From Candidatus Omnitrophota bacterium (GTDB lineage Bacteria > Omnitrophota > Gorgyraeia > Gygaellales > JAHJCI01), in assembly GCA_016783355.1 (NCBI GenBank), contig JADHWR010000001.1, forward strand, positions 6,072-70,071: DNA of 64,000 bases, read 5' to 3'. Below the pieces are notes generated by a model. It worked only from the letters and a program-made list of their open reading frames with translations. It ran no database searches and had not been told where the DNA came from. Below, one piece after another: positions 12,384-63,730 of this stretch (positions are counted from its first letter, which is position 1; each line of letters opens with the position of its first letter). A program made the position numbers and the translations under genes.

Positions 12384-12397
12384 TTTTTACCCCCTTT

Positions 12398-12494
12398 AAT
12401 GAGTCCGCCAAAGTTCGTTGGCGGACGAATTAATCCCGCTGAGTGTGCCAAAATTATAAAATAGAATTTTGGCACATATTACGAAGCGGGATAA
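12398..12494 (-). ncRNA. Structured leader repeat, copy 1 of 3 (about 100 nt), directly upstream of the rplL ribosome-binding site
   Basis: Its AATGAGTCCGCCAAAGTTCGTTGGCGGACGAATT hairpin is identical to that in copies 2 and 3. A long nested hairpin follows (ATCCCGC...GCGGGAT enclosing GTGCCAAAATT...AATTTTGGCAC). The inner stem differs from copies 2 and 3 by compensatory changes. Confidence 0.6.
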
Positions 12495-12496
12495 GT

Positions 12497-15672: not shown

Positions 15673-16326
15673 TTATTCTAAGGCCTTTAAAAGCTCCTCA
15701 CCGAACTCTTTAGCTGCAAATGGACCAGCGGCAGTAATAATATTGCCATCTCTTACTACAGCTCCCCCTGTATAGTTAGCTCCTGCTTGTTGTAACTTCC
15801 CTGCTTCACTTGACCAAACAGTGGCAGATTTACCTTTAAGTAAGCCTGCCTTCGCCAGGATTACAGGAGCAATACAAATTGCGCCAACGATTTTATTTGC
15901 GGCAGAGGCATCCAATGCAATCTTATGGGCTTTGGCATTATCCCAATAAACGCTTGCACCACTGCCACCTATAAAAACCACAGCATCAAAATCAAAAGGA
16001 CTTAGCTCTTCAATCGTTAAATCAGGCTTTATTTTTGCTCCTAACATGCCCTGGGCATAATCTTGCGTAAAAGCAGCAACCTTAACTTCACAGCCTGCAT
16101 CCTCTAAAACCTGTTTGGGAATAAGTAGCTCTTCATCTCTGAAATTTTTCTGCGCAATAATCATCACTACTTTTTTCATCTCTTGGCCTCCTGCCTGCCC
16201 CGTTAGAAACTTTGTTTTTAACGGGGCCTGCGCCCAAACAACCTTTAAGAAAAAGGCACAAAAAAATCCAACCATTAAGCAAAAAACTGTTGTCCATTTC
16301 TGAAGTAGAACAAGATTCTTATTCAA
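15673..16326 (-). CDS. DJ-1/PfpI family protein. The start is ambiguous: either the long ORF has a signal-peptide-like N-terminus, or translation starts at the internal MKKVVMII
   Basis: The class I glutamine amidotransferase-like DJ-1 core has the nucleophile-elbow context ICIAP. A family-1 mini-element lies in the N-terminal extension at 16198-16226. Confidence 0.8.
   Translation of the reverse strand: MNKNLVLLQKWTTVFCLMVGFFCAFFLKVVWAQAPLKTKFLTGQAGGQEMKKVVMIIAQKNFRDEELLIPKQVLEDAGCEVKVAAFTQDYAQGMLGAKIKPDLTIEELSPFDFDAVVFIGGSGASVYWDNAKAHKIALDASAANKIVGAICIAPVILAKAGLLKGKSATVWSSEAGKLQQAGANYTGGAVVRDGNIITAAGPFAAKEFGEELLKALE
16198..16226. mobile_element. Family-1 miniature palindromic element (29 bp) flanked by CCTG direct repeats, in the 5' part of the DJ-1/PfpI ORF
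   Basis: The sequence is CCCCGTTAGAAAC-TTTG-TTTTTAACGGGG. CCTG occurs at 16194-16197 and again at 16227-16230. Confidence 0.6.
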
Positions 16327-17389
16327 CGCGCTTTTTCGTAATTAAATTGTAGGTCTTGCAGGCAATCATTAATTCCTCATTTGTTGCCACAACTAAAATT
16401 TTTGGTATTTCTTTAAAATAAGAAAAGAGGTCTTGGCAGATTTTTTCTCGAAGATTAGCCTCATTTTCACCTATGCCTGCGGTAAATATTACTGCATCGC
16501 AACCACCCATAATCCCTGCGTAGGCACTAATATACTTTCTGATACGATAAACAAAAACATCAATTGCCAAACGTGCGCGTTTGTTGCCATTTTGGGCTTC
16601 CTTTTCTATGATGCGCATATCATTGCTCAGGCCGGAAATTCCCTTTAATCCACTTTTTTTATTGAGAACATTTTCTACCTTTTTGCTATCCCAATGTCTT
16701 TCATGTTGCAAATAAGTAATTATTGCCGGGTCAATATCCCCGCAGCGTGTACCCATAATTAAACCCTCTAATGGCGTAAAACCCATACTTGTATCAATGA
16801 CCTTACCAAACTTTATTGCGGTGATACTACAACCATTGCCTAAATGACAGGTAATCAGCTTTAATTTTGCCAAAGACCGGCCTAATCTCCTCGCTGCCTC
16901 CTGGGCAACATACTCATGACTCGATCCGTGAAAACCATATCTTCTTATTGCATACTGCTGATAAAAGCGATAAGGCAAACCGTAGATATAGGCGTATTCT
17001 GGCAATGTTTGATGATAAGCAGTATCAAAAACAGCGACCTGAGGAACAGCACCCATTAGTTTCTTACAAGCACGGACACCAGCTAAATTTGCTGGATTAT
17101 GCAAAGGTGCAAGCAAACAACAACGCCGGATATCAAGAATAACCTCCTTGTTAATCAAAACCGGCTTTTTAAACTGCTCGCCACCGTGAACAACACGATG
17201 ACCAATACCGTCAACCTTGTGTTTAATCGAAGATAAAACCACCTTAAGCCCGGCGTAATGATTCTTTGTCTTTGCGTCCTTTTCTCCAATATGGTCGATT
17301 AGACCTCTTTCTAATACCTCTTGCTTAGGCATGGAAAAGAGCTCATATTTAATAGAAGAGCTGCCACAATTAATAACCAAAATATTCAT
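16319..17389 (-). CDS. ackA: Acetate kinase. The likely start is MNILVINCGSSS, which overlaps the pta stop
   Basis: The NCGSSS(I/L)K N-terminal motif and the HGSSHEYV motif identify the acetate/propionate kinase family. The gene is adjacent to pta. Confidence 0.85.
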   Translation of the reverse strand: MNILVINCGSSSIKYELFSMPKQEVLERGLIDHIGEKDAKTKNHYAGLKVVLSSIKHKVDGIGHRVVHGGEQFKKPVLINKEVILDIRRCCLLAPLHNPANLAGVRACKKLMGAVPQVAVFDTAYHQTLPEYAYIYGLPYRFYQQYAIRRYGFHGSSHEYVAQEAARRLGRSLAKLKLITCHLGNGCSITAIKFGKVIDTSMGFTPLEGLIMGTRCGDIDPAIITYLQHERHWDSKKVENVLNKKSGLKGISGLSNDMRIIEKEAQNGNKRARLAIDVFVYRIRKYISAYAGIMGGCDAVIFTAGIGENEANLREKICQDLFSYFKEIPKILVVATNEELMIACKTYNLITKKRVE

Positions 17390-26267: not shown

Positions 26268-26913
26268 TTAAAACATCCCAAATCATCTTAACCTGTTTTT
26301 TTGTCTCAGATTTCGTCCCACTATTATCAATAACAAAATCAGCTAAATTTAGCTTCTTTTTTAATGGCATCTGCAAATTTATGCGCTTTTTAATTTCCGA
26401 AAGGCAAAATCCCTTTTTTTTAAGGCGCAATTTTTGAATGTCTGACCTTGCCCTTACGGCAATTATCTTATCCACGATTCTCGCCAGTCCTGCTTCGATT
26501 AATAAGGGTGCATCAATTATAATAAACTTAAAATTTCGGGCCTGCTGAATCTGTATTTTAATTTCCTTAATTATTCCTGGATGCAGAATTTCGTTGAGCT
26601 TCTTTAGGGAATGCTTATTTCTGAAAGCACTCTTAGCTAACCTTTTTCGATTAATCTGTTGATTCCTGGAAAGTATCCTTTCCCCAAATGCCGCAAGAAC
26701 CCGCCTGTAAGCCCCGTTCGAAGTAAGGCGCCCAAGGCGACTGCCCCGCCAAATTCCGTGGCGGGGACTTCTAACGGGGTAAGCCTTTTTCTTGGGCTCG
26801 ATTAACTGATGCGCAATCCTATCTGCATCAATAATCTGAGCGCCTAATTGTTTAAAATAGTGCGCGCACGTCGTCTTCCCTGTGCCAAAACTGCCGGTAA
26901 TACCAACAATCAT
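26227..26913 (-). CDS. coaE: Dephospho-CoA kinase. The likely start is [15 protein letters not shown]. It carries an in-frame family-1 element
   Basis: P-loop [12 protein letters not shown] and CoaE family sequence. About 24 aa ([23 protein letters not shown]) are encoded by the inserted palindromic element. Confidence 0.85.
26712..26779. mobile_element. Family-1 palindromic element (68 bp) inserted in frame in coaE
   Basis: Termini CCCCGTTCGAAGT...ACTTCTAACGGGG with an inner CCCCGCC...GGCGGGG hairpin. TAAG direct repeats flank both ends, and element plus 4 bp equals 72 bp, which is 24 codons. Confidence 0.7.
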
Positions 26914-28295
26914 TTTAAAAGGTGGTGGTAAAGCCCAATATAATTCCGGGCGGCAGTGGTCCAAGAAAAATTACAACCCATACCTCGCTTCATTAAAGAA
27001 AGCCGCCTGTTTTTATCTTTAAAAACTAAAAGCATCTCTTTGATCTTTGCCACGAGGGCCGATGGCGAATACTGATCAAAAATAAAACCATTCTTTTTAT
27101 CAATTGTATCAGTAAGGCCGCCTGTCTTAAAAACCAATGGAATTGTACCATATTTCAGGCTAATCATCTGCCCCAAGCCGCAGGGTTCGTATTTGGAAGG
27201 CATCAGGAATATGTCGCAGCCAGCATATATCTTATGAGCTAATACGTTGTCGAACTTAAGAAAGGTGCGTAACTTTTTAGGAAACTTTCTGGCTAATCTT
27301 TCTAAAATTCGGTGATAATTCAGCTCTCCTGTTCCCAGAATAACCAATTGAAGCGGAAGTGAACATATCTCCTCCATTGCCTCACTTAAGATATCAAAGC
27401 CCTTCTGCTGAGTGAGTCGAGAGACAATACCCAAAAGAGGAATATCGGACCTTGAAGGCAGCTTTGATAATTTGCATAGGGCCTCCTTATTTTTAACTTT
27501 GCCTTCAATATTGTCTTTGTCATAATTCTTGAGAATAAATTTATCGGTCTTTGGATTCCAAAGCTGATAATCTAAACCATTCAATATACCAAATAGATTA
27601 TCTCGCCGCCTGATCAAGACCCCTTCCAAGCCACAACCAAACTCCTTCGTTTGTATTTCTTTGGCATAAGTAGGACTTACTGTATTTATAGCGTCAGAAA
27701 AAACAATCCCGGCCTTTAATAGATTGACCTTACCGTAAAACTCCAATGCCTCCATATTAAAAAGCGACCAATCTAAGCCTAATTTAGGAAATTCCTCTTT
27801 ATTAAATAGTCCCTGATAGGCAAGATTATGAATTGTCAATAGTGTCTTTATTCCTTTATAAAATTCATCACCTTGAGCGGTTGTTTTTAAATATACGGGA
27901 ACAAGCGAACTCTGCCAGTCATGACAATGAAGTATCTGAGGCCTGAATTCTATTTCTTTTAAAAGTTTTAATGCCTCTCGGCAAAAATAAGAGAATCGGT
28001 TGAGATTATCGGGAAAGTCACCTTCTTTTTCTCCGTAGAGTCCTGGGCGATTAAAAAACTCTTCTTTCTTAATAAAATAAACCTTAATCTTTTTTCCTAT
28101 GGTTGTTGTAGAAATTTTCGAATTTAAGTCCTCAATTTTAAATCCTGCTGCCTTTGTCTTTTTGTAAAAGGGCATAATCACGATAATCTCATGTTTTAAT
28201 CTCTCCAAAGGCAAAGGCAGAGCCCCGACTACATCAGCAAGACCGCCGGTCTTGGCAAAAGGCACAACCTCTGATGCAAACATTGCGATTCTCAC
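26910..28295 (-). CDS. glgA: Glycogen synthase (ADP-glucose type)
   Basis: A 461 aa ORF reading MRIAMFASEVVPFAKTGGLADVVGALP, the GT5 GlgA N-terminal motif. Confidence 0.92.
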   Translation of the reverse strand: MRIAMFASEVVPFAKTGGLADVVGALPLPLERLKHEIIVIMPFYKKTKAAGFKIEDLNSKISTTTIGKKIKVYFIKKEEFFNRPGLYGEKEGDFPDNLNRFSYFCREALKLLKEIEFRPQILHCHDWQSSLVPVYLKTTAQGDEFYKGIKTLLTIHNLAYQGLFNKEEFPKLGLDWSLFNMEALEFYGKVNLLKAGIVFSDAINTVSPTYAKEIQTKEFGCGLEGVLIRRRDNLFGILNGLDYQLWNPKTDKFILKNYDKDNIEGKVKNKEALCKLSKLPSRSDIPLLGIVSRLTQQKGFDILSEAMEEICSLPLQLVILGTGELNYHRILERLARKFPKKLRTFLKFDNVLAHKIYAGCDIFLMPSKYEPCGLGQMISLKYGTIPLVFKTGGLTDTIDKKNGFIFDQYSPSALVAKIKEMLLVFKDKNRRLSLMKRGMGCNFSWTTAARNYIGLYHHLLK

Positions 28296-30964
28296 TTAAT
28301 CTCCTCCATCTCTAACCAATTCTTACCCTTCTTTATTACTACCTTTATGGGAACAGAAAGGGCTAAGGCATTCTCCATCTCATAAGATATCATCTCAATT
28401 GCCCTCTGCAATTGCCCGTTCGGTATCTCAAAAATAAGTTCATCGTGAATTTGCAGGAGGAGCTTCGCCGAAAGCGTTCTTTCCTCAATCTTCTGATATA
28501 TCTTAATCATCGCCATCTTAATTAAATCTGCTGCCGAGCCTTGGATGGATGAATTTACTGCCTGCCTTTCGGCAAATGCACGAACTGCGGCATTCTGATG
28601 ATTAATGTCAGGGAGATAGCGATGGCGACCTAAAATAGTTGTTACAAAATTGTCTTTTTTTGCCTTTTCAATCTGCCTGGCGATATAATCTTTTACTCTG
28701 GGATACCTTAAAAAATAGGCATCAATAAAGCGAGTTGCCTCCTCCCTTGAAATTCCTAATTCCCTTGCTAAACCAAAGGAAGATAGACCATAAATAATTC
28801 CAAAATTTATGCGCTTTGCTACTTCTCGCATCTGATCATTGACAATAGAATCCTCTGTGCCATAAACTAAAGAGGCAGTGGCACGATGTATGTCTTTGCC
28901 TTGCGAAAAAGCATCAATCAGCACCTTCTCGCCTGATAAATGTGCCAGAACCCTTAATTCTACCTGAGAATAATCAAAAGAGACCAAAAAATTATCCTCG
29001 CAACTCGTGATGAAAGCCTTTCGTATCTTGCGCCCTAACTCTGTCTTAATCGGTAGATTTTGCAAATTAGGATTAGAGGAGCTCAGTCTTCCCGTCTGTG
29101 TTCCTGTTTGATTGAAGAATGTATGAATGCGCAGGGTTTTTTTATCTGCCAGTTCCATTAAGGCATCGATATAAGTAGATTTTATTTTACAAAGCATACG
29201 ATATTCCAATAAAATTTTTGGTAAGGGATGCTGGCTTGCTAAGACAGCAAGAACCTCCTCATCGGTAGAGGCGCCTGTCTTTTTCTTTTTTATCACCGGC
29301 AGTTTTAATTTCTCAAAAAGAACCTGACGTAGCTGTAAGGGTGAGTTGATATTAAACGGCCCACCAGCAAGATGATAAATTTTACTGACCAGGCCTTTGC
29401 GCTTTTCTTCAATTTCAATGCCCAAGGCTTTAAGAAACTCTAAATCAAGCTTTATACCCTCTAATTCCATCTGCGCTAAAACAGGAATCAAGCGAATCTC
29501 TAAGTCGCAAAAGATGCGAAAGCTATCTTTAAGCTTTAGTTCTTTCTCTAAAACCGACTTAAGTGTTCCAATAACAACACAAACCTCAAGTGGACTTATC
29601 TTTCCTGCCCCGTTCGAAGTCCCCGCCGTAGGCGGGGCAGTCGCCCCGGGCGTCTTACTTCGAACGGGGCCTGCATCCAAAATTCTCTTCAGATAATCCC
29701 AGCACAGGCTCTCAAGACTATAATCAGACCGGGACGGATTCAAAAGATAAGCAGCAATCATCGTATCAAAACCTAACCCTTCTAGGGCGATATTATGCCG
29801 GGCTAATCGCAAAAAGATATCTTTTAGATTGTGGCCGATTTTCTTAATCTTTGGGTCTCTAAGGACAGGTTCAATGCTCTTTAAGGAGCCTTTCTCTAAT
29901 TCTAAAAAAGAATCACTCTCTGGAAGATAAACTGTCAACCCCTCCTCATTCATATAGAGAATCAACTCACCTGCCTGCCTAAACTGATCAATCCCGGCAA
30001 CCTGCCTGTTGGCACTTCGACGGAGTTTATCCCGAGCGAAGTCGAGGGACTCAGTGCTAGCACTCCGACTTCGCTCAGTGCCAACCCTGAGCTTGTCGAA
30101 GGGTTGCTCAGGTAAATCTTTAAGAAATTTTTTAAATTCTAACTCACGAAAGATTTCATAAAGATTTCTATAGTCAGGCTTCTTTATCTTTAAACTTTGC
30201 GCATCAAATTCTATATCTAAATCTGTCCTTAATTGTGCAAGATAATGACATAGTTTTATTTGCTCAATCTTTTCTTTCAAGCGAGAACGAAGCTTTTGTT
30301 CTTTTATCTGATCCAAATTCAATAAGAGATTTTCCAGAGACTTAAATTTATCCAGGAGCTTGGTGGCGGTCTTTTCTCCTATGCCAGGAACACCCGGGAT
30401 ATTATCAGCTGTATCTCCGGCAAGAGCAATAAAGTCAGCAATTCTGCCGGGTAAAAATCCGTATTGGCGCTTAACCCCTGCCACATCATAAATTATCTTT
30501 TTGTCTTTATGAGGATGCAGAACAATAACTCCCTCATCCACTAATTGCAAGATATCCTTATCAGCGCTGACAATCATTATTGTAAAATCCTTCTCTTTTG
30601 CCTTCCTGGTTAATGTCGCAATAACATCGTCTGCTTCAAAGCCCTCCTTCTCAAATATATTAATTCCAAAGGCCTTGATTATCTTTTTAATGTAAGGCAG
30701 TTGAGTCACTAAATCCGCAGGCATAGGAGGACGTTGTATCTTGTAACGCGCAAATTCTTTTTGGCGAAATGTGTGCCTTGAGACATCAAAACATACACCC
30801 ATATACTGCGGATTTATCTCTTTTAAAACCTTATTCAGAAAATTCACAAAGCCATAAATAGCATTGGTACAAAGACCGTAAGAGGTCGCAAGCCCCCTTA
30901 TGGCATAATAGGCGCGGTAACAGATGCCGTTGGCATCAATAAGTACTACTTGGGCTTTATCCAT
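28292..30964 (-). CDS. polA: DNA polymerase I (5'-3' exonuclease plus polymerase domains) carrying two different in-frame repeat insertions
   Basis: An 890 aa ORF with 5'-nuclease N-terminal sequence, Klenow-like motifs (..DYSQVELRVLAHLS.. ..QIHDELIFE..) and two inserted peptide segments that match the repeat families. Confidence 0.92.
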   Translation of the reverse strand: MDKAQVVLIDANGICYRAYYAIRGLATSYGLCTNAIYGFVNFLNKVLKEINPQYMGVCFDVSRHTFRQKEFARYKIQRPPMPADLVTQLPYIKKIIKAFGINIFEKEGFEADDVIATLTRKAKEKDFTIMIVSADKDILQLVDEGVIVLHPHKDKKIIYDVAGVKRQYGFLPGRIADFIALAGDTADNIPGVPGIGEKTATKLLDKFKSLENLLLNLDQIKEQKLRSRLKEKIEQIKLCHYLAQLRTDLDIEFDAQSLKIKKPDYRNLYEIFRELEFKKFLKDLPEQPFDKLRVGTERSRSASTESLDFARDKLRRSANRQVAGIDQFRQAGELILYMNEEGLTVYLPESDSFLELEKGSLKSIEPVLRDPKIKKIGHNLKDIFLRLARHNIALEGLGFDTMIAAYLLNPSRSDYSLESLCWDYLKRILDAGPVRSKTPGATAPPTAGTSNGAGKISPLEVCVVIGTLKSVLEKELKLKDSFRIFCDLEIRLIPVLAQMELEGIKLDLEFLKALGIEIEEKRKGLVSKIYHLAGGPFNINSPLQLRQVLFEKLKLPVIKKKKTGASTDEEVLAVLASQHPLPKILLEYRMLCKIKSTYIDALMELADKKTLRIHTFFNQTGTQTGRLSSSNPNLQNLPIKTELGRKIRKAFITSCEDNFLVSFDYSQVELRVLAHLSGEKVLIDAFSQGKDIHRATASLVYGTEDSIVNDQMREVAKRINFGIIYGLSSFGLARELGISREEATRFIDAYFLRYPRVKDYIARQIEKAKKDNFVTTILGRHRYLPDINHQNAAVRAFAERQAVNSSIQGSAADLIKMAMIKIYQKIEERTLSAKLLLQIHDELIFEIPNGQLQRAIEMISYEMENALALSVPIKVVIKKGKNWLEMEEIK
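29608..29669. mobile_element. Family-1 palindromic element (62 bp) inserted in frame in polA
   Basis: Perfect TIRs CCCCGTTCGAAGT / ACTTCGAACGGGG with an inner CCCCGCCGTAGGCGGGG hairpin. CCTG direct repeats sit at 29604-29607 and 29670-29673. The element encodes GPVRSKTPGATAPPTAGTSNGAG. Confidence 0.75.
30008..30113. repeat. Family-2 palindromic repeat (about 100 bp) inserted in frame in polA. It encodes DKLRVGTERSRSASTESLDFARDKLRRSANRQ
   Basis: Imperfect palindrome GAGCGAAGTCGAGGGACTCAGTGCTAGCACTCCGACTTCGCTC plus the CCTGAGCTTGTCGAAGGG core shared with the array at 31007-31198. Confidence 0.65.
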
Positions 30965-31006
30965 TTAGAAAATCAAGCATAAAATAAAAATAGGAATGGG
31001 TTGACA

Positions 31007-31198
31007 CCTCGACTTCGTCCCTCGACTTCGTCCCTCGACTTCGTCCCTCGACTTCGTCCCTCGACTTCGCTCGGGACGACCCTGAGCTTGTCGAAGGGTC
31101 GCTCGGGACGACCCTGAGCTTGTCGAAGGGTCGCTCGGGACGACCCTGAGCTTGTTGTCGAAGGGTCGCTCAGTGTCAATCCTGAGCTTGTCGAACGG
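31007..31198. repeat. Tandem array of family-2 units upstream of polA: five copies of a 13 bp unit then three copies of a 32 bp unit. This is not a CRISPR array
   Basis: CCTCGACTTCGTC appears five times. CGGGACGACCCTGAGCTTGTCGAAGGGTCGCT appears three times, followed by a partial CCTGAGCTTGTCGAACGG. There are no unique spacers. The array generates the spurious 68 aa ORF at 30973-31179. Confidence 0.8.
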
Positions 31199-31207
31199 AT
31201 TGAATTA

Positions 31208-32152
31208 TTAGTTTTTAGGGGTTAATTCCGTGGCTATCTTTTCTAAAGTCTGCTTTGCAGTTACAATATCATCCTGCTCATAGAATCTGATCGCATCTTG
31301 AAACTTGGCCTGCATAATAGCGATGTGTTCTTGTTTTTGTTTTTCTTTAATCTCTTTATTTATTTTATCTATTAAGGTCAAAAATGAGTCTCTGTCTGAC
31401 GGGTCCAAAGAAATGGCTAACACCAGTGCATTTTTTGCTTCCTCTATTTTGTGCTCTTCATATAAATCATCAGCCAGTTCCTTAAGTTTTTGAATCTCTT
31501 TTAACTCTGTTAATCTGACTGCCTTTTTATGAATGGCGAGCTCACGCACTAAACTAAGCGTCTCTTCCTCTATCAACTCCTGCTGAAGAGAAGGCTGAGT
31601 CTCTGCGATGGCCTGGCGTCTGCGTTTCGCCCACTCCACCCAAGACTCACCGGGAATTCCCAATTCTATACGTTTTTTCCAATAATCAAAAGCCTTCTTT
31701 AGTTCTCTTTTTTGCTCATAAAGCATAGCTAAATTTGAATATAAATTATGATACTGGGGATTTAATTTTAGTCCAACTAAATAAATCTTCTCTGCCCTAT
31801 CAAGTAAACCCTTGGCCTCAAACATAATTCCTAAATCATTGTAAGCAATAACATAAGCAGGGTCTAACTCAATTGCCTTCTGATAACAGACTGTGGCACT
31901 ATCTAAATCACCGCGCTGCTGAAACTGCAAACCTTGACTTCGAAGAAGACGTGCCTCTTTTTGAAAAGTAGTTTGTTTCTGCGCAAAAAGTGAGGTTGGG
32001 AAACAGAATAAGTTAATTGTTATAAATAAATTAATTGCTACAAAAGAGATAATTCCCTTTGTAAACCCCGTTCGAAATTCCTCCAATCTTTGCTTAAGGC
32101 TTAATGATACATAAGTAGCCGAGGCTTTTGAATCTATCTTAAATCTATGCAT
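31208..32152 (-). CDS. TPR-repeat protein with an N-terminal transmembrane/signal segment. The annotated start codon lies inside family-1 element A
   Basis: A 314 aa ORF with a hydrophobic segment (IISFVAINLFITINLFCF) and several TPR-like helices (AYNDLGIMFEAKG...). Confidence 0.7.
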   Translation of the reverse strand: MHRFKIDSKASATYVSLSLKQRLEEFRTGFTKGIISFVAINLFITINLFCFPTSLFAQKQTTFQKEARLLRSQGLQFQQRGDLDSATVCYQKAIELDPAYVIAYNDLGIMFEAKGLLDRAEKIYLVGLKLNPQYHNLYSNLAMLYEQKRELKKAFDYWKKRIELGIPGESWVEWAKRRRQAIAETQPSLQQELIEEETLSLVRELAIHKKAVRLTELKEIQKLKELADDLYEEHKIEEAKNALVLAISLDPSDRDSFLTLIDKINKEIKEKQKQEHIAIMQAKFQDAIRFYEQDDIVTAKQTLEKIATELTPKN

Positions 32153-32171
32153 ATCTAAATTTCGAACGGGG
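32046..32171. mobile_element. Family-1 element A (126 bp) with perfect 13 bp TIRs. TAAA flanks it on both sides
   Basis: CCCCGTTCGAAAT at 32046-32058 and ATTTCGAACGGGG at 32159-32171. TAAA is at 32042-32045 and at 32172-32175. Confidence 0.65.
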
Positions 32172-32433
32172 TAAACCCCGTTCGAAATAGGAAACGCTTT
32201 AATCTATCGTTCAAATAGCGTTTACCCTTTCCAGACTTCAGGTGTTTTTCTCTACTCATTGCATCATATTTATTTAGACAGGCTTCATAATAAATAAGCT
32301 TAAAGGGGCCTCTATTCTTAGTAGAAGACACCTTTCCTGAATTATGCTCACTAAAGCGTTTCCGTAAATCATTCGTTAAGCCTGTATACCATTTTTTATC
32401 TTTCTGGCTTTGAATTACATAAACATAATGCAT
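32155..32433 (-). CDS. Small GIY-YIG (URI-domain, UPF0213/YhbQ-like) nuclease, 92 aa
   Basis: MHYVYVIQSQKDKKWYTGLTNDLRKRFSEHNSG... shows the GIY...YIG spacing, the conserved Arg, and Glu in YYEAC. The last 9 codons (RTGFTPFEI) are read from TIR sequence. Confidence 0.8.
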   Translation of the reverse strand: MHYVYVIQSQKDKKWYTGLTNDLRKRFSEHNSGKVSSTKNRGPFKLIYYEACLNKYDAMSREKHLKSGKGKRYLNDRLKRFLFRTGFTPFEI

Positions 32434-39282: not shown

Positions 39283-40440
<1,158 letters not shown>

Positions 40441-43287: not shown

Positions 43288-45378
43288 CTATAGTTTTCTT
43301 GCTATCTTCTCAATTTTATAGCCTTCCATTATATCGCCTATTTTATAATCAGAAAAATTACCTATGGATATGCCGCACTCATAACCTTCAGATACCTGAG
43401 AAACCTCATCTTTAAAACGCCGAAGATTGCTAATCTTTCCGCTAAAGATAGTAGTGTTGTCTCTGATTATATCTATATTGAGCGTGCGCAAGATCTTACC
43501 CTTAGTTATAGTACACCCCGCCACAACACCACTTCGCGAGAGATTAAAAACCTGCTTCACGCGTGCCTGTCCAAAAGATACCTTTTTTATCTTTGGGCTT
43601 AACAACCCTTCTAAAGCCGCCTTTATCTCCTCGACTAATTCATAAATTATATTGTATGTCCTTACCTCCACCTGCTCTTTTTTAATTAATTCCTTTGCTC
43701 GCTCTTCTATATTTATATGAAAACCCAAGATTAGCGCATCAGAGACAGACGCCAGCATTACATCTGAAGTGTTAATTAAGCCCACTCCTTTATGGGTTAT
43801 CTTAAATTTTACCTCTTTTGTCTCTAATTTTATTAGAGAATCCCGCACCGCCTCTAATGAGCCGAATGTGTCTGCTTTAATAATAATCTTCAGCTCTTTA
43901 AGAACACCGTTTTTTATTTCCTGATGTAAATCCTCCAGCGAAAACCGATGTGGTGAAATATTCCTTTTTTCCTTTGTCTCGCGCAGCGAGATAAGTGCTC
44001 TTGCCCCTTTCTCGTCCTTGACAACAAAAAATCTCTCTCCTGCCTCAGGCACGGATTCAAAACCTAAAATTCCCACAGGCTGACTGGCAGTAGCTTCCTC
44101 AACTCTCTGGCCACAGTCATTAAATATTGCCTTTACCTTTGCTAAGTTCTTCCCCGCAACAAGTAGATCATTAAGATGTAATTTTCCATTCTGCACCAAT
44201 AAAGTTGCCAGAGGACCCCTGTTTGGGTCCTGTCTTGCCTCAATAACAACACCCCTTGCTATCTGATTATAATCTGCTTTCAATTCTAACATTTCTGCCT
44301 CTAAAAGAATCATCTCTAATAATTCATCTATGCCCTGACCGGTTTTGGCAGAAACCTCTACCGTTACGGTCTTGCCTTGCCACTCCTCAGGAACTAAACC
44401 AATATCAGCAAGTTGCTTCTTTACCCTATCTACGTTAGCCTGAACTCGATCAACTTTATTTATGGCGACAATTATAGGAACCTCAGCATCTCGGGCATGG
44501 TTAATTGCCTCAATTGTCTGAGGCATAACACCATCATCAGCAGCAACCACTAAAACAACAATATCTGTAATCTGTGCGCCCCGTGCACGCATTGCCGTAA
44601 ATGCCTCATGACCGGGTGTATCCAAAAATGCAATCTTACCCTTATCTAAATTAACCTCATATGCACCGATGTGCTGGGTTATGCCTCCATGTTCAAAATC
44701 AACGACCTTTGTCTTTCTAATCATATCCAAAAGGGAGGTCTTACCATGGTCAACATGACCCATAAATGTTACTACGGGTGGACGAACATTTAAATCCTGA
44801 GGCTGGCTTGATACCTCATGTAAGGAAAGCAGGCGTTCTTCTAAAGAGGGAGCCTGCTTGACTTTAAAGCCAAAATTCTCACAAACCTGCTCTACTTCAT
44901 CTTTTCCTAAAGATTGGTTAATGTTGGCTAGGATTTTTAACTTTAAAAGTTCCTGCATTAGCTGCGAGAGTTTAATTTGAAGCTTAACCGCTAAATTCTT
45001 AACAGAAATAGGGAAATCTAATTCTAATACCTTAGCTTGTGGCGCCTCTTCAACCAAAATTGCTTGTAGCTGCTGGGGTTGAGGCTCTAAGGTCTTTGCT
45101 TGAATTTTAGACTTGCGGGAGACTCTTCTCTTTGGTTTAGGGGCTATTTCTTTCCTCTTGATTTGCTTTTTGCCTGGCTCTTTTCGTAGGACCGCAGGCT
45201 TTTTTGCTTTCCTTGCCCCGTTTGAAATCCCTCGCCTAACGGCGGGGGCAGCTACCTTTGGTGTCTTACTTCGAACGGGGTTTGGCTTTGTAGAGGAAGC
45301 CCTTAAGCGAGTCTTTGAAGCCTTTCTCACTTTAGTTTTTAATGCTTTTGGTTTCTTAGGTTTTTTTATCTTTTTCAT
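43288..45378 (-). CDS. infB: Translation initiation factor IF-2 with an in-frame family-1 element in the basic N-terminal region
   Basis: The GTPase domain ([13 protein letters not shown]...) and C-terminal domains are typical. The N-terminal segment NPVRSKTPKVAAPAVRRGISNGA is encoded by the palindrome. Confidence 0.92.
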   Translation of the reverse strand: MKKIKKPKKPKALKTKVRKASKTRLRASSTKPNPVRSKTPKVAAPAVRRGISNGARKAKKPAVLRKEPGKKQIKRKEIAPKPKRRVSRKSKIQAKTLEPQPQQLQAILVEEAPQAKVLELDFPISVKNLAVKLQIKLSQLMQELLKLKILANINQSLGKDEVEQVCENFGFKVKQAPSLEERLLSLHEVSSQPQDLNVRPPVVTFMGHVDHGKTSLLDMIRKTKVVDFEHGGITQHIGAYEVNLDKGKIAFLDTPGHEAFTAMRARGAQITDIVVLVVAADDGVMPQTIEAINHARDAEVPIIVAINKVDRVQANVDRVKKQLADIGLVPEEWQGKTVTVEVSAKTGQGIDELLEMILLEAEMLELKADYNQIARGVVIEARQDPNRGPLATLLVQNGKLHLNDLLVAGKNLAKVKAIFNDCGQRVEEATASQPVGILGFESVPEAGERFFVVKDEKGARALISLRETKEKRNISPHRFSLEDLHQEIKNGVLKELKIIIKADTFGSLEAVRDSLIKLETKEVKFKITHKGVGLINTSDVMLASVSDALILGFHINIEERAKELIKKEQVEVRTYNIIYELVEEIKAALEGLLSPKIKKVSFGQARVKQVFNLSRSGVVAGCTITKGKILRTLNIDIIRDNTTIFSGKISNLRRFKDEVSQVSEGYECGISIGNFSDYKIGDIMEGYKIEKIARKL
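45216..45280. mobile_element. Family-1 palindromic element (65 bp) in frame in infB
   Basis: CCCCGTTTGAAAT...ACTTCGAACGGGG termini with an inner CCCTCGCC...GGCGGGGG hairpin. Element plus 4 bp equals 69 bp. Confidence 0.7.
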
Positions 45379-46549: not shown

Positions 46550-46630
46550 GTTCTTTGTCTAAATATGGGTAAATATGGGGACGGTTCTCGCTATCTTATT
46601 GTAATACAACAAGATAAAAATAAATTTTCG

Positions 46631-46805
46631 CCACAAAGTCGCCACAAAAACGTTGACGACCCGCCAAAGTATTGTGGCGGGATTTGCACCAGAAAGTCGC
46701 CACAAAGCGTTGGCGACCCGCCAAAGTATTATGGCGGGATTTGCACCAGAAAGTCGCCACAAAGCGTTGGCGACCCGCCAAAGTATTATGGCGGGATTGG
46801 CGCAT
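46631..46805. repeat. Three tandem copies of a 57 bp double-hairpin repeat between rimP and nusA, plus a degenerate fourth hairpin
   Basis: Each unit is GTCGCCACAAAGCGTTGGCGAC + CCCGCCAAAGTATTATGGCGGG. Copies start near 46631, 46691 and 46748. The repeats generate overlapping spurious ORFs on both strands. Confidence 0.8.
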
Positions 46806-46853
46806 CCGCCGGTTCTTATTGGAGGCGAATCCGCCAATTATTTTGGCGGAAGC

Positions 46854-52669: not shown

Positions 52670-53437
52670 TTATTCCTTAATCCTTCGTCTTCGTCCTTCG
52701 CTTCGCTCAGGACTAATCTCTCCGAAGCGGCGATGCCTTTCTTGGTAATCCTTGATTGCCTCGCTCAAATCCTCTTTTTTAAAATCAGGCCAGTAAATTT
52801 TAGTAAAATAAAGCTCGGCGTAAGATGCCTGCCAGAGTAAAAAATTGCTCAACCGTAGCTCTGCGCCTGTGCGGATTAAAAGGTCAAGCTCAGGCAAGTT
52901 ACGAGTATAAAGGAATTGAGAAAAGACCCTCTCATTTAAGGTCTTTATCCAATCAGGGGATTTAGTTGCTAATTCAATAATCTGACGACAGGCATCAACA
53001 ATCTCTTGCCGGGCTCCATAATTTAATGCCAGAACCAGAGTCATCCCCGTGTTTTTTGCAGTGAGCTCTTGCGCTTTCTTAATCTTAAATAAAAGCCGCT
53101 CTGAGAGAGACACGCTTCGGCCAATAACGCGAAAACGCAGGTTATCTTTATTTAATTCCTTAATGTCATTATCTAAAAAATGAGAAAAAGCCCTCATTAA
53201 CATATCTACTTCTTTTTTTGGTCTTTGCCAATTCTCGCAGGAAAAGGCAAACAATGTCAGAGTCTCAATCCCTAACTGATTTGCTGCCCTGGTAATCTCC
53301 TTTATTCGCTTCATGCCTTTTCTGTGACCTGCACTGCGCATAAGCCTTCTCATCTTCGCCCAACGGCCATTACCATCCATTATTATAGCAACGTGTTTAG
53401 GAATGTTGTTTTTATCTAACATTGAAACGCCTTGCAC
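52670..53437 (-). CDS. uppS: Undecaprenyl (isoprenyl) diphosphate synthase. Its C-terminal tail is encoded by family-2-like repeat DNA
   Basis: HVAIIMDGNGRWA and cis-prenyltransferase family sequence. The 3' end (52670-52735) carries CGTCTTCGTCCTTCGCTTCGCTCAGG repeat-like sequence. Confidence 0.9.
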   Translation of the reverse strand: MQGVSMLDKNNIPKHVAIIMDGNGRWAKMRRLMRSAGHRKGMKRIKEITRAANQLGIETLTLFAFSCENWQRPKKEVDMLMRAFSHFLDNDIKELNKDNLRFRVIGRSVSLSERLLFKIKKAQELTAKNTGMTLVLALNYGARQEIVDACRQIIELATKSPDWIKTLNERVFSQFLYTRNLPELDLLIRTGAELRLSNFLLWQASYAELYFTKIYWPDFKKEDLSEAIKDYQERHRRFGEISPERSEGRRRRIKE

Positions 53438-55731: not shown

Positions 55732-55826
55732 ATCTCTGCCCTCCCGCCCTGTACCATACGGTACAGGGCCCGCTCCGTACCATACGGTACAGGGCCCGCT
55801 TGTTGTCAAATGTGGAGACCTGACCC

Positions 55827-56922: not shown

Positions 56923-56937
56923 CGCTCCTACCTCCTC

Positions 56938-57031
56938 AATGAGTCCGCCAAAGTTCGTTGGCGGACGAATTGATCCCGCCGAATGCTCTAAAATTATCAG
57001 GGAGAATTTTAGAGCAGTTTATGAGGCGGGG
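56938..57031 (-). ncRNA. Structured leader repeat, copy 2 of 3, directly upstream of the ribosome-binding site of the OmpA-like gene
   Basis: AATGAGTCCGCCAAAGTTCGTTGGCGGACGAATTGATCCCGCCGAATGCTCTAAAATTATCAGGGAGAATTTTAGAGCAG...GAGGCGGGG. Confidence 0.6.
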
Positions 57032-57116
57032 TATGTACATTATTTGGGTCATTCCATAAGTCTCGTCCTTACTTATTTTAAATTATATCTATACCTTCGT
57101 CAATATCTATAAATTT

Positions 57117-62972: not shown

Positions 62973-62983
62973 TGTGACCTCCT

Positions 62984-63085
62984 CAATGAGTCCGCCAAAG
63001 TTCGTTGGCGGACGAATTGATCCCGCCGAATGCTCTAAAATTATCCCCTGCGGGGAGAATTTTAGAGCAGCTTATGAGGCGGGAT
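62984..63085 (-). ncRNA. Structured leader repeat, copy 3 of 3, directly upstream of the clpP ribosome-binding site. A TATAAT box sits just upstream on the minus strand
   Basis: It matches copy 2 but carries an extra apical CCCCTGCGGGG hairpin. On the minus strand, TATAAT lies about 7 nt before the element's 5' end. Confidence 0.6.
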
Positions 63086-63116
63086 ATACATTATTATAGT
63101 AATCTCTTAAAACTAA

Positions 63117-63189
63117 AGCGGGAGACGGGCTTCGAACCCGCGACATTCACGTTGGCAACGTGATGCTCTACCAACTGAGCTACTCCCGC
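63117..63189 (-). tRNA. tRNA-Gly (anticodon GCC)
   Basis: Cloverleaf GCGGGAGTAGCTCAGTTGGTAGAGCATCACGTTGCCAACGTGAATGTCGCGGGTTCGAAGCCCGTCTCCCGCT. Confidence 0.85.
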
Positions 63190-63216: not shown

Positions 63217-63302
63217 TGCCGCGGGAGAGACTCGAACTCTCAAGTCTTTGTCAGACATTAGGTCCTAAGCCTAACGCGTATACCAAATTCCGCCACCGCG
63301 GC
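63217..63302 (-). tRNA. tRNA-Leu (anticodon TAG), a class II tRNA with a long variable arm
   Basis: An 86 nt sequence, GCCGCGGTGGCGGAATTTGGTATACGCGTTAGGCTTAGGACCTAA...GAGTTCGAGTCTCTCCCGCGGCA, with anticodon loop CTTAGGA. Confidence 0.8.
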
Positions 63303-63331: not shown

Positions 63332-63730
63332 TGAGCCACCCGCGACTCGAACGCGGCACACCCGCCTTAAACATTTTTGTTAACTGTATGTCGCCATACA
63401 GATCAGACTATCCCATCCCCCTCACGCTTATCCTTAAAAAAGAAAGCGATGGGGGTCTCGATTATAGTCGTTGAACCTTCCCAGTACTTATTTGCTAAGA
63501 TAATTTCTGATTCAAATAAATGCCGGGCTTGGCTGCAGATTGTCTGCATTTAAGAATTTTTACCCCCGCCACAATACTTTGGCGGGTCGCCAATGCTTTG
63601 TGGCGACAGACATAAAGGGTATCTTAAAATACTCAGACTTTCCCGCAATTTACGAGATTCTCACTATTGATTTCTCAATAATGGCCCCTTTTTCGCGAGG
63701 GCGGTGCTCTACCAGATGAGCTAGTGGCCC
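63332..63730 (-). tRNA. Split tRNA gene (73 nt mature, anticodon inferred UUU, so Lys) interrupted in the anticodon loop by a 326 nt group I intron
   Basis: Exon 1 (63698-63730) is GGGCCACTAGCTCATCTGGTAGAGCACCGCCCT. Exon 2 (63332-63371) is TTTAAGGCGGGTGTGCCGCGTTCGAGTCGCGGGTGGCTCA. The two halves form a complete cloverleaf with a GGGCCAC/GTGGCTC acceptor and a CCGCC/GGCGG anticodon stem. Confidence 0.7.
63372..63697 (-). ncRNA. Group I intron within the tRNA-Lys(UUU) anticodon loop
   Basis: The 5' exon ends in U and the intron ends in G. Intron segments resemble the Tetrahymena P4 (AAAUUGCGGGAAAG), P6 (GCAGCCAAG) and P7 (ACGACUAUAAUCG...GAUAGUCUGAUC) regions. Its P5 region contains a copy of the rimP-nusA double-hairpin repeat. 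Confidence 0.7.

Follow-up and report, generated by a model that had tools for sequence, protein, structure and literature searches.

A hairpin-forming palindromic repeat translated within polA of a Candidatus Omnitrophota bacterium, and recurrence of its core across bacterial phyla

The palindromic elements of Rickettsia (RPEs) reportedly lie in frame within essential genes. In enterobacteria, the bacterial interspersed mosaic elements (BIMEs) are mosaics of a few modules that alternate in orientation, are joined by fixed linkers and form variable intergenic clusters. Miniature inverted-repeat transposable elements, or MITEs, are small, non-coding and multicopy, have terminal inverted repeats and are sometimes intragenic. 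The nick-site hairpins of HUH enzymes, as in rolling-circle and circular Rep-encoding single-stranded (CRESS) DNA origins, combine a freely co-varying stem with an invariant loop of 9–12 nt. Repetitive extragenic palindromic (REP) sequences with a GTAG or CGTC tag have been found inside replication and repair genes, including that for DNA polymerase I (Pol I) (Di Nocera et al. 2013, PMC3733652). Flanking open reading frames (ORFs) often take their stop codon from the end of a GTAG REP, CGTC REPs lack a dedicated transposase, and RPE-4 and RPE-6 are themselves CGTC-tagged REP families (PMC3733652). That REPs lodged in genes for replication and repair might be functional has been the subject of speculation (Di Nocera et al., PMC3733652). 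The current study concerns a palindromic repeat, termed family 2, in a 64-kb stretch of contig JADHWR010000001.1 from a Candidatus Omnitrophota bacterium (the window; 64,000 nt in all). Family 2 is translated as part of polA, forms a mosaic array upstream of that gene and, in a diverged form, supplies the end of uppS (Table 1).

The PolA protein is identical to a public protein named DNA polymerase I from a Candidatus Omnitrophica metagenome-assembled genome, and its structure matches are the Taq, E. coli and Bacillus Pol I enzymes. The ORF holds the peptide ...PEQPFDKLRVGTERSRSASTESLDFARDKLRRSANRQ... within a segment translated as PEQPFDKLRVGTERSRSASTESLDFARDKLRRSAN. A preliminary description of the window had identified this segment as in-frame repeat DNA ending at 30113; the frame is as proposed, and the end lies one base earlier, at 30112. 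PolA residues 3–283 align with Taq 11–284 and homology to the Klenow fragment restarts near residue 337; the insert occupies the variable linker after the 5'-nuclease domain and before the Klenow-like part. The nearest other PolA proteins are 54–57% identical and are 835–882 aa in length, as against 890 aa. FDKLR, LDFAR and FARDK were found in none of the 119 PolA orthologues retrieved; the contrary evidence named at the outset, an unrelated polA with the same peptide and no repeat DNA, was not met among them. The GC content of the insert is 0.58, compared with 0.40 in the remainder of the gene. In an AlphaFold2 model of PolA built with 58 sequences (mean predicted local distance difference test score, pLDDT, 85.7), values below 50 are confined to residues 290–322, which correspond to the family-2 insert, and 433–454, which correspond to an insert of a second repeat family (family 1). 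The same protein, with the insert, is encoded on three contigs from separate assemblies, and elsewhere in the genome an intergenic copy is identical to the insert over 46 nt. Together with the motif counts below, the intergenic copy, the gap in the orthologues, the GC content and the model show repeat DNA that is read through in frame, as first suggested, and support the view that this segment of polA is inserted repeat DNA and not ancestral sequence.

Both the core sequence and the palindrome put forward at the outset occur far more often than chance predicts. The core CCTGAGCTTGTCGAAGGG, allowing up to three mismatches, has four matches in the window (30086, 31081, 31113 and 31181, all on the + strand; 0.04 expected), and the palindrome half CCTCGACTTCGCTC, allowing up to two, has seven (0.25 expected). 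GAGC-N4-5-CGARGG is also found seven times, against 0.23 expected, and six of these occurrences fall within the polA, array and uppS loci. Two related units can be distinguished. The exact 18-mer of unit A, CCTGAGCTTGTCGAAGGG, is present at 30086, 31081 and 31113, and that of unit B, CCTCGACTTCGCTCGGGA, at 31059 (+) and 30031 (-). On the coding (minus) strand, unit A reads CCCT-TCGACAAGCTC-AGGG and unit B reads CCC-GAGCGAAGTCGA-GGG; the B unit of the window has the form GTCCC-TCGACTTCGCTC-GGGAC. A units have GAGCTTGTCGA as their conserved loop, and B units have GAGCGAAGTCGA. Each unit is also a small hairpin on its own, and B is an inverted, diverged A; what appear as two 'motifs', A (..GAGCTTGTCGA..) and B (..GAGCGAAGTCGA..), are the inverted, diverged halves of one hairpin doublet. 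When joined in opposite orientations as A-TCGT-B, the units fold as a longer doublet, the tip of which is GCTCGGG-ACGA-CCCTGAGC on the + strand. The polA insert consists of an A hairpin and an adjoining element that has TTGGCACT/AGTGCCAA ends and contains a B:B' palindrome; it folds more stably than shuffled sequences both as DNA (z = -5.3) and as RNA (z = -4.5, -54 kcal/mol).

The design common to these units is a stem of 4–6 bp and free sequence, closing a conserved loop of 11–12 nt, GAGC-N3-4-TCGA. The three A stems in the window (AACCCT/AGGGTT, GACCCT/AGGGTC and CAATCC/GGATTG) are all complementary. Covariation was assessed in 110 distinct copies from other genomes, not chosen by the 18-mer, at five positions on each side of GAGCYTGTCGA. 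Stem cells were paired in 81.8% of cases, compared with 57.2% in shuffles, and double-change cells numbered 157, compared with 57. The covariation score was 0.63 against 0.21 in shuffles (reached by 0/500), and slid controls gave 0.06–0.22. Fully complementary 4-bp stems of 23 different types were present in other genomes, and G-T wobble pairs were few and symmetric. Stem pairing and compensatory changes around a constant loop indicate a hairpin in which the stem is free and the loop invariant. Judging from the sequence, the stem could continue into the loop by way of tandem G.A/A.G pairs together with a G-C pair.

The array upstream of polA is composed of the same modules. It had been described as five copies of a 13-bp unit and three of a 32-bp unit at 31007–31198; the modules are as described, but Tandem Repeats Finder counts 4.8 copies of the 13-bp unit (31007–31069, 100% match) and 3.9 of the 32-bp unit (31067–31195), and the array spans 31001–31202. 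Read on the coding strand, it opens with an A' hairpin and the end TTGACACT, continues with A-TCGT-(B start) units, three in number, and a full B, and closes with 13-bp partial-B units before the end GTGTCAA. In its termini, TTGACAC/GTGTCAA, both arms are changed relative to TTGGCACT/AGTGCCAA and complementarity is kept. The suggestion that the copy number of the array might vary was borne out by comparison with a second assembly (contig L001), which shows three mismatches and two gaps over 7.6 kb aligned; one of these gaps is exactly one 32-bp array unit fewer, for which assembly collapse is a possible cause. A further contig, L002, stops within the array. Contig L001 closes (16395–16500) with a 92% copy of window 32067–32172, which suggests a repeat-induced contig break. 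When the translation of the array was used in a protein search, 12 ORFans without Pfam domains were returned.

At uppS, there is a real, diverged copy of the repeat. The whole of 52670–52735 had been attributed to family 2; the part that can be aligned is 52681–52713, which matches array positions 31044–31077 at 29/34 positions with one gap and a score of 41. The scores of 2945 random 66-nt segments of the window had a mean of 13.8 (sd 2.3) and a maximum of 26. The order of the modules is that of the left part of the array, with a pair of 13-bp units and then a full hairpin, TCCT-TCGCTTCGCTC-AGGA. Homology of this UppS to 150 representatives ends at approximately residue 241 (RRFGEI), which is where the tail copy begins. 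The UppS tail after RFG is 16 aa in length, whereas among 142 representatives the median is 8 aa and the 90th percentile is 16 aa, and PERSEG is present in none of the UppS orthologues compared.

Further copies are found on two contigs, L123 and L277, that were placed in the same genome by sample and coverage. A protein search with the polA insert peptide returned one ORFan, from the same genome. This ORFan (P0121, 62 aa) is encoded on contig L123, which shares both ENA samples and the coverage of the window genome. The intergenic copy with 46 nt identical to the polA insert is on this contig; it has the same TTGGCACT/AGTGCCAA ends and lacks the inner 24-nt palindrome. Comparison of L123 with contig L124 (3300–5400) reveals scattered single-nucleotide polymorphisms and a 6-bp indel, indicating that the two ENA samples represent slightly different strains. 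Contig L277 carries an array in which TTGGCACT-GAGCGA-A-TCGT-B is followed by 3.7 of the 13-bp units, and its terminus is TTGGCACT with one extra C (AGTGCCCA).

Outside this genome, the 36-nt A-TCGT-B string has a single exact match in the JGI metagenomes, which suggests that the composite is lineage-restricted, though its units are not. The match (Ga0180007_10071381, positions 520–610) lies on an AT-rich contig from an unrelated JGI sample, where A-TCGT-B and a 13-bp module are in frame near the N-terminus of PdxA. The insert is read there in a different frame from that used in polA (..HPSTSSFDFARDDPELVEGSLG..) and sits between positions 1–33 of the Pfam profile and position 34, at which the PdxA match resumes.

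Table 1. Coordinates of the repeats and of the genes that contain them (window numbering)
Feature	Position	Strand	Description
polA (DNA polymerase I)	28292-30964	minus	Uninterrupted 890-aa ORF; host of two repeat inserts
Family-2 insert in polA	30008-30112	minus	105 nt = 35 codons (P285-N319); composite palindrome in frame
Core element in polA insert	30009-30084		8-bp inverted repeat TTGGCACT (30009-30016) / AGTGCCAA (30077-30084) as ends
B:B' palindrome inside polA core element	30034-30044 / 30066-30076		GAGCGAAGTCG / CGACTTCGCTC
A-type hairpin in polA	30083-30105	+	AACCCT-GAGCTTGTCGA-AGGGTT; 6-bp stem, 11-nt conserved loop; exact 18-mer core inside
Family-1 insert in polA	29631-29675	minus	Residues ~432-457 (about 22-26 residues); CCCCGTT.GAA... 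hairpins
Mosaic array, ~200 nt	31001-31202		In 243-nt spacer between tetratricopeptide repeat (TPR) gene stop (31208) and polA start (30964)
Array, left part (+ order)	31007-31069 (13-bp units)		TTGACAC, then 13-bp units x4.8, then one full B hairpin
Array, middle (+ order)	31067-31195		(ACGA + A hairpin + TCGCTCGGG) x3 as 32-bp units
Array, right part (+ order)	31173-31179; 31177-31202		GTGTCAA, then terminal A' hairpin CAATCC..GGATTG
uppS	52670-53437	minus	
Diverged 13-bp-unit + B-hairpin module	52681-52713	minus	Encodes S-PERSEGRRRR-I of the UppS tail

The core itself is widespread. Exact matches to the A 18-mer were obtained in at least 120 stretches of IMG/VR viral contigs and in at least 120 stretches of one-genome-per-species GTDB contigs; the chance expectation for an 18-mer in all 596 Gb of the GTDB set is approximately 17 (2 x 596e9 / 4^18). 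Among the matches listed (80 genome titles), the carriers belong to at least 17 phyla and include Bacteroidota, Cyanobacteriota, Pseudomonadota, Actinomycetota, Nitrospirota, Myxococcota, several groups of the candidate phyla radiation, NC10, Planctomycetota, Acidobacteriota, Armatimonadota, Chloroflexota, Zixibacteria, Lentisphaerota/Verrucomicrobiota, Deferribacteres, Eremiobacterota and Binatia, with Microbacterium, Sphingopyxis, Moraxella and Porphyrobacter among the isolates. A 30-mer containing the core is present in 101 PLSDB plasmids, with as many as 23 sites in a single Sphingobium replicon. The peptides FDKLR.. and SLDFARDKL had been said to recur in hypothetical proteins of uncultured lineages; they do recur in short ORFans of other origin, but the core extends to isolates, plasmids and the phyla above. 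The GC content of the host loci ranges from 31 to 72%.

The B 18-mer is found in 33 viral stretches, with the same outer arms (CCGTTCG...CGAACGG) as A, and by this common framing A and B belong to one superfamily. An inverted doublet between these arms is the usual form in Proteobacteria and viral contigs. The arms were not found on the window copies, which have the TTGGCACT/AGTGCCAA ends and the 4-nt TCGT joint instead. The window units have the exact A and B 18-mers and a complementary 4–6-bp stem around the loop, as in the shared form; by this comparison, the window copies represent a lineage-specific arrangement of shared units. An inverted partner lies within 130 nt of 95 of 272 copies, at a median spacer of 30 nt, and a tandem neighbour accompanies 27 of the 272. 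Copies in other genomes are mostly intergenic, and many also lie within long ORFs. Partial-unit duplications beside the core are frequent in the IMG/VR loci (L003–L122), for example CCTGAGCCCTGAGCTTGTCGAAGGGTCGAAGG and ..GTCGAAGGGCTTTGTCGAAGGGCTTTGTCGAAGGG, and 27 IMG/VR loci share a portal-like phage protein, judged by eye, within 2.5 kb of the core. No account of the element was found in the literature queried by peptide, DNA string or topic; the full-text hits for the peptides and DNA 12-mers were confined to chance matches with primers and to German papers on orthopaedics. ORFans of the PFDKLRANG/SLSKG type are often met in genome annotations, and the symptom is familiar to practitioners.

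Of the described systems, RPEs offer a close parallel for in-frame insertion, being translated as extra peptides at surface or linker positions and having intergenic copies too. Comparable in-frame insertions at tolerant sites are seen here in the polA linker, the UppS end and PdxA. RPEs are specific to Rickettsia, whereas family 2, set apart from them by description, has a different sequence, a conserved loop in place of a conserved tag or stem, and a distribution over many phyla. Family 2 shares with BIMEs the mosaic of few modules, the alternating orientation, the fixed linkers and the variable intergenic clusters. To our knowledge, BIMEs are not found in frame in polA, their sequences differ and their palindromic units are lineage-specific. 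As in MITEs, there are terminal inverted repeats, TTGGCACT/AGTGCCAA at polA and on L123, and the extra-C form on L277. In contrast to MITEs, the inner content of family 2 varies by slippage, and neither a target-site duplication nor a parent insertion sequence sharing its ends was found. The likeness to HUH origins is one of functional analogy only, and no Rep/HUH gene is linked to the repeat here.

With REPs and REPINs, the paired form of REPs, family 2 shares its occurrence as singletons, inverted dimers and tandem clusters, and the existence of superfamilies that extend over several phyla (PMC3733652; Bertels & Rainey 2011, PMC3116915). REPs also often lie just past stop codons, and some are within genes or supply gene ends. 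Like REPs, family 2 consists of multicopy short palindromes, at three loci in the window and on two other contigs. No GTAG or CGTC tag was found at the hairpin foot, and no CCA tail. REP stems are family-specific and 8–9 bp long, with loops of 4–5 nt, whereas the family-2 stem of 4–6 bp is free and its loop of 11–12 nt invariant. Neither the motif nor the peptides of family 2 appear in the text or supplements of the REP survey (PMC3733652).

The reading that we favour, with a probability of roughly three in four, is that family 2 belongs to the REP/REPIN/MITE-like kind of repeat, being short, non-autonomous and hairpin-forming, and is tolerated in coding DNA where its frame is open and the protein flexible. 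In this genome, doublets and 13-bp partial B units are packed between TTGGCACT/AGTGCCAA termini. Copies would spread through a hairpin-dependent copying process acting in trans. By analogy with REPIN systems and their REP-associated tyrosine transposases (RAYTs), and with nick-site hairpins that have a conserved loop, the preferred guess is cleavage and joining of single-stranded DNA by an enzyme of the HUH/tyrosine (Y1) type; template switching at hairpins could also be responsible. Arrays would lengthen and shorten by replication slippage, as suggested by the one-unit difference between otherwise near-identical assemblies and the partial-unit duplications elsewhere. Translation would serve no purpose of its own. 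Four of the six frames of the polA insert lack a stop codon, so that a copy with a length that is a multiple of three survives wherever the protein tolerates extra residues; in the window, such places are the Pol I interdomain linker and the UppS C-terminal end. On the same view, the individual copies would be largely neutral.

Several observations weigh against this reading. No mobilising enzyme was recognised among the ORFs between inverted copies at some 270 loci, which look like housekeeping or phage genes, although no Y1 hidden Markov model scan was run. Clustering of ORFs within 2.5 kb of the core yielded GC-rich spurious ORFs and the portal-like cluster, with no linked transposase. No consistent target-site duplication flanks the copies; a TCCCAATC repeat at the L123 copy lies within a CCAAT-rich tract. 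No long element bounded by the repeat termini is present in the window. An empty site cannot be demonstrated, since the nearest polA genes in the searched collections are only 54–57% identical. The one-unit difference in the array could reflect assembly collapse and not a true difference between strains. Lastly, conservation of the loop across phyla, in loci with a GC content of 0.31–0.72, suggests a sequence-specific partner or function, which a purely selfish model leaves unexplained.

It is conceivable, if rather doubtful at present, that the loop hairpin GAGC-N3-4-TCGA defines a third REP-like superfamily, distinguished by its invariant loop and freely co-varying stem, beside those with GTAG and CGTC tags. 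If so, a widespread sequence-specific partner, either an enzyme or a host factor, would recognise the GAGC..TCGA loop, and the Omnitrophota mosaic, together with the copies read in frame within polA, uppS and pdxA, would represent one local outcome. The phenomenon of a repeat in frame within genes is already known; the element itself looks to be an undescribed REP-like variant with unusually broad conservation. It follows for annotation that PFDKLR, PELVEG, LSLSKG, LRQAQG, PSTSSG and SLDFARD, where they occur in short hypothetical proteins or within enzymes, can be recognised as translations of one hairpin repeat, and that new domains should not be inferred from the additional segments of PolA, UppS and PdxA. 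The locus also provides a clean case, beyond Rickettsia and Proteobacteria, of repeat DNA absorbed by essential genes at tolerant sites. Should the conservation of the loop prove truly undescribed, whatever recognises GAGC..TCGA becomes a search target, and the loop a marker for the horizontal spread of miniature repeats, possibly via phages.

The main alternative, which we regard as unlikely, is that the hairpins are functional RNA or DNA signals, such as 3'-end stabilisers, attenuators, or sites for RNase III or a host factor, with the array regulating polA and the copies within genes arising as by-products. A covarying stem around an invariant loop is a classic mark of selected structure. 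The A' hairpin of the array ends 5 nt past the TPR gene stop codon and the UppS copy is at the uppS-cdsA junction, both typical positions for REP-like RNAs; the three window loci and the L277 copies share their orientation relative to local genes, and the RNA fold of the polA insert is strong. Elsewhere, however, the copies show no orientation bias with respect to flanking co-directional ORFs (28 vs 21), and this, with the few and symmetric G-T wobble pairs, is more readily reconciled with a constraint that acts on DNA or is symmetric between strands than with an RNA role tied to one strand. No Rfam family was matched at the gathering threshold at the window repeats, nor in 19 loci with typical elements, the array shows no T-tract terminator on its transcribed strand, and many copies lie inside long ORFs. 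A functional signal and a selfish repeat may also coexist.

It is less probable still, and in our estimation highly unlikely, that the 35 residues are a selected functional segment of Pol I, for example an Arg/Ser-rich linker that alters the behaviour of the enzyme. The presence of two independent repeat inserts in one repair polymerase, the identity of the PolA protein in three assemblies and the reported over-representation of REP inserts among genes for replication and repair, DNA polymerase I included (PMC3733652), would be in keeping with selection. Against this, both inserts have pLDDT values below 50 and their only homologues are repeat translations, and the DNA concerned lies between genes elsewhere in this genome and takes a different reading frame in PdxA. 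The possibility that repeat reads were mis-joined into polA during assembly is scarcely credible: the ending of L002 in the array and the variation in array length do suggest that assemblers struggle here, but three contigs from different assemblies carry the identical insert-bearing ORF, the insert amounts to exactly 35 codons with the frame kept, and the flanks are continuous and identical. Equally implausible is a guanidine-II (mini-ykkC) riboswitch with GCTCGGG-ACGA-CCCTGAGC as its ACGR-loop hairpins, which was rejected on score, strand and context: the Rfam RF01068 match at 31101–31148 (+) covers the full model length (21.1 bits, E = 0.12), but falls below the gathering threshold of 32, is antisense to the TPR gene with all neighbours on the minus strand and no + gene downstream, and has hairpins that are fully accounted for by the A:B junctions of the repeat, which are also in frame in PdxA.

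The second insert in polA confirms the earlier view that the gene hosts two unrelated repeat families. Family-1 copies, inverted or direct, are present in the window at 26706–26750 and 45245–45283. The insert is absent from the 39 PolA orthologues displayed, and column occupancy over all 119 is 0.15. Family-1 hairpins are also found at 16193–16232, 39862–39901 and 45212–45283.

Other repeats are present in the window. A group I intron (Rfam RF00028; 88 bits, full length) at 63384–63707 (-) is adjoined by genes for tRNA-Leu(UAG) (63217–63302) and tRNA-Gly (63117–63189), and holds a copy (63565–63607) of another palindromic family (GTCGCCAC../CCCGCCAAAG..). The same family forms a tandem repeat at 46624–46817, where a 57-bp unit is repeated 3.1 times (94% match) and has two GC-rich hairpins (GTCGCCAC..GTTGGCGAC and CCCGCCAAAG..GGCGGG). 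Another interspersed family is represented by three copies of a repeat of approximately 106 nt with a GAGTCCGCCAAAGTTCGTTGGCGGAC hairpin (12391–12496, 56931–57036 and 62977–63087), two of which are 100% identical over 69 nt. At 55743–55800, a 26-bp palindromic unit, CCCGCTCCGTACCATACGGTACAGGG, is repeated 2.2 times in tandem, and a related hairpin, CCCCGTACCGTACGGTACGGGGC, is found at 2117–2140 of contig L277, just upstream of the family-2 array.

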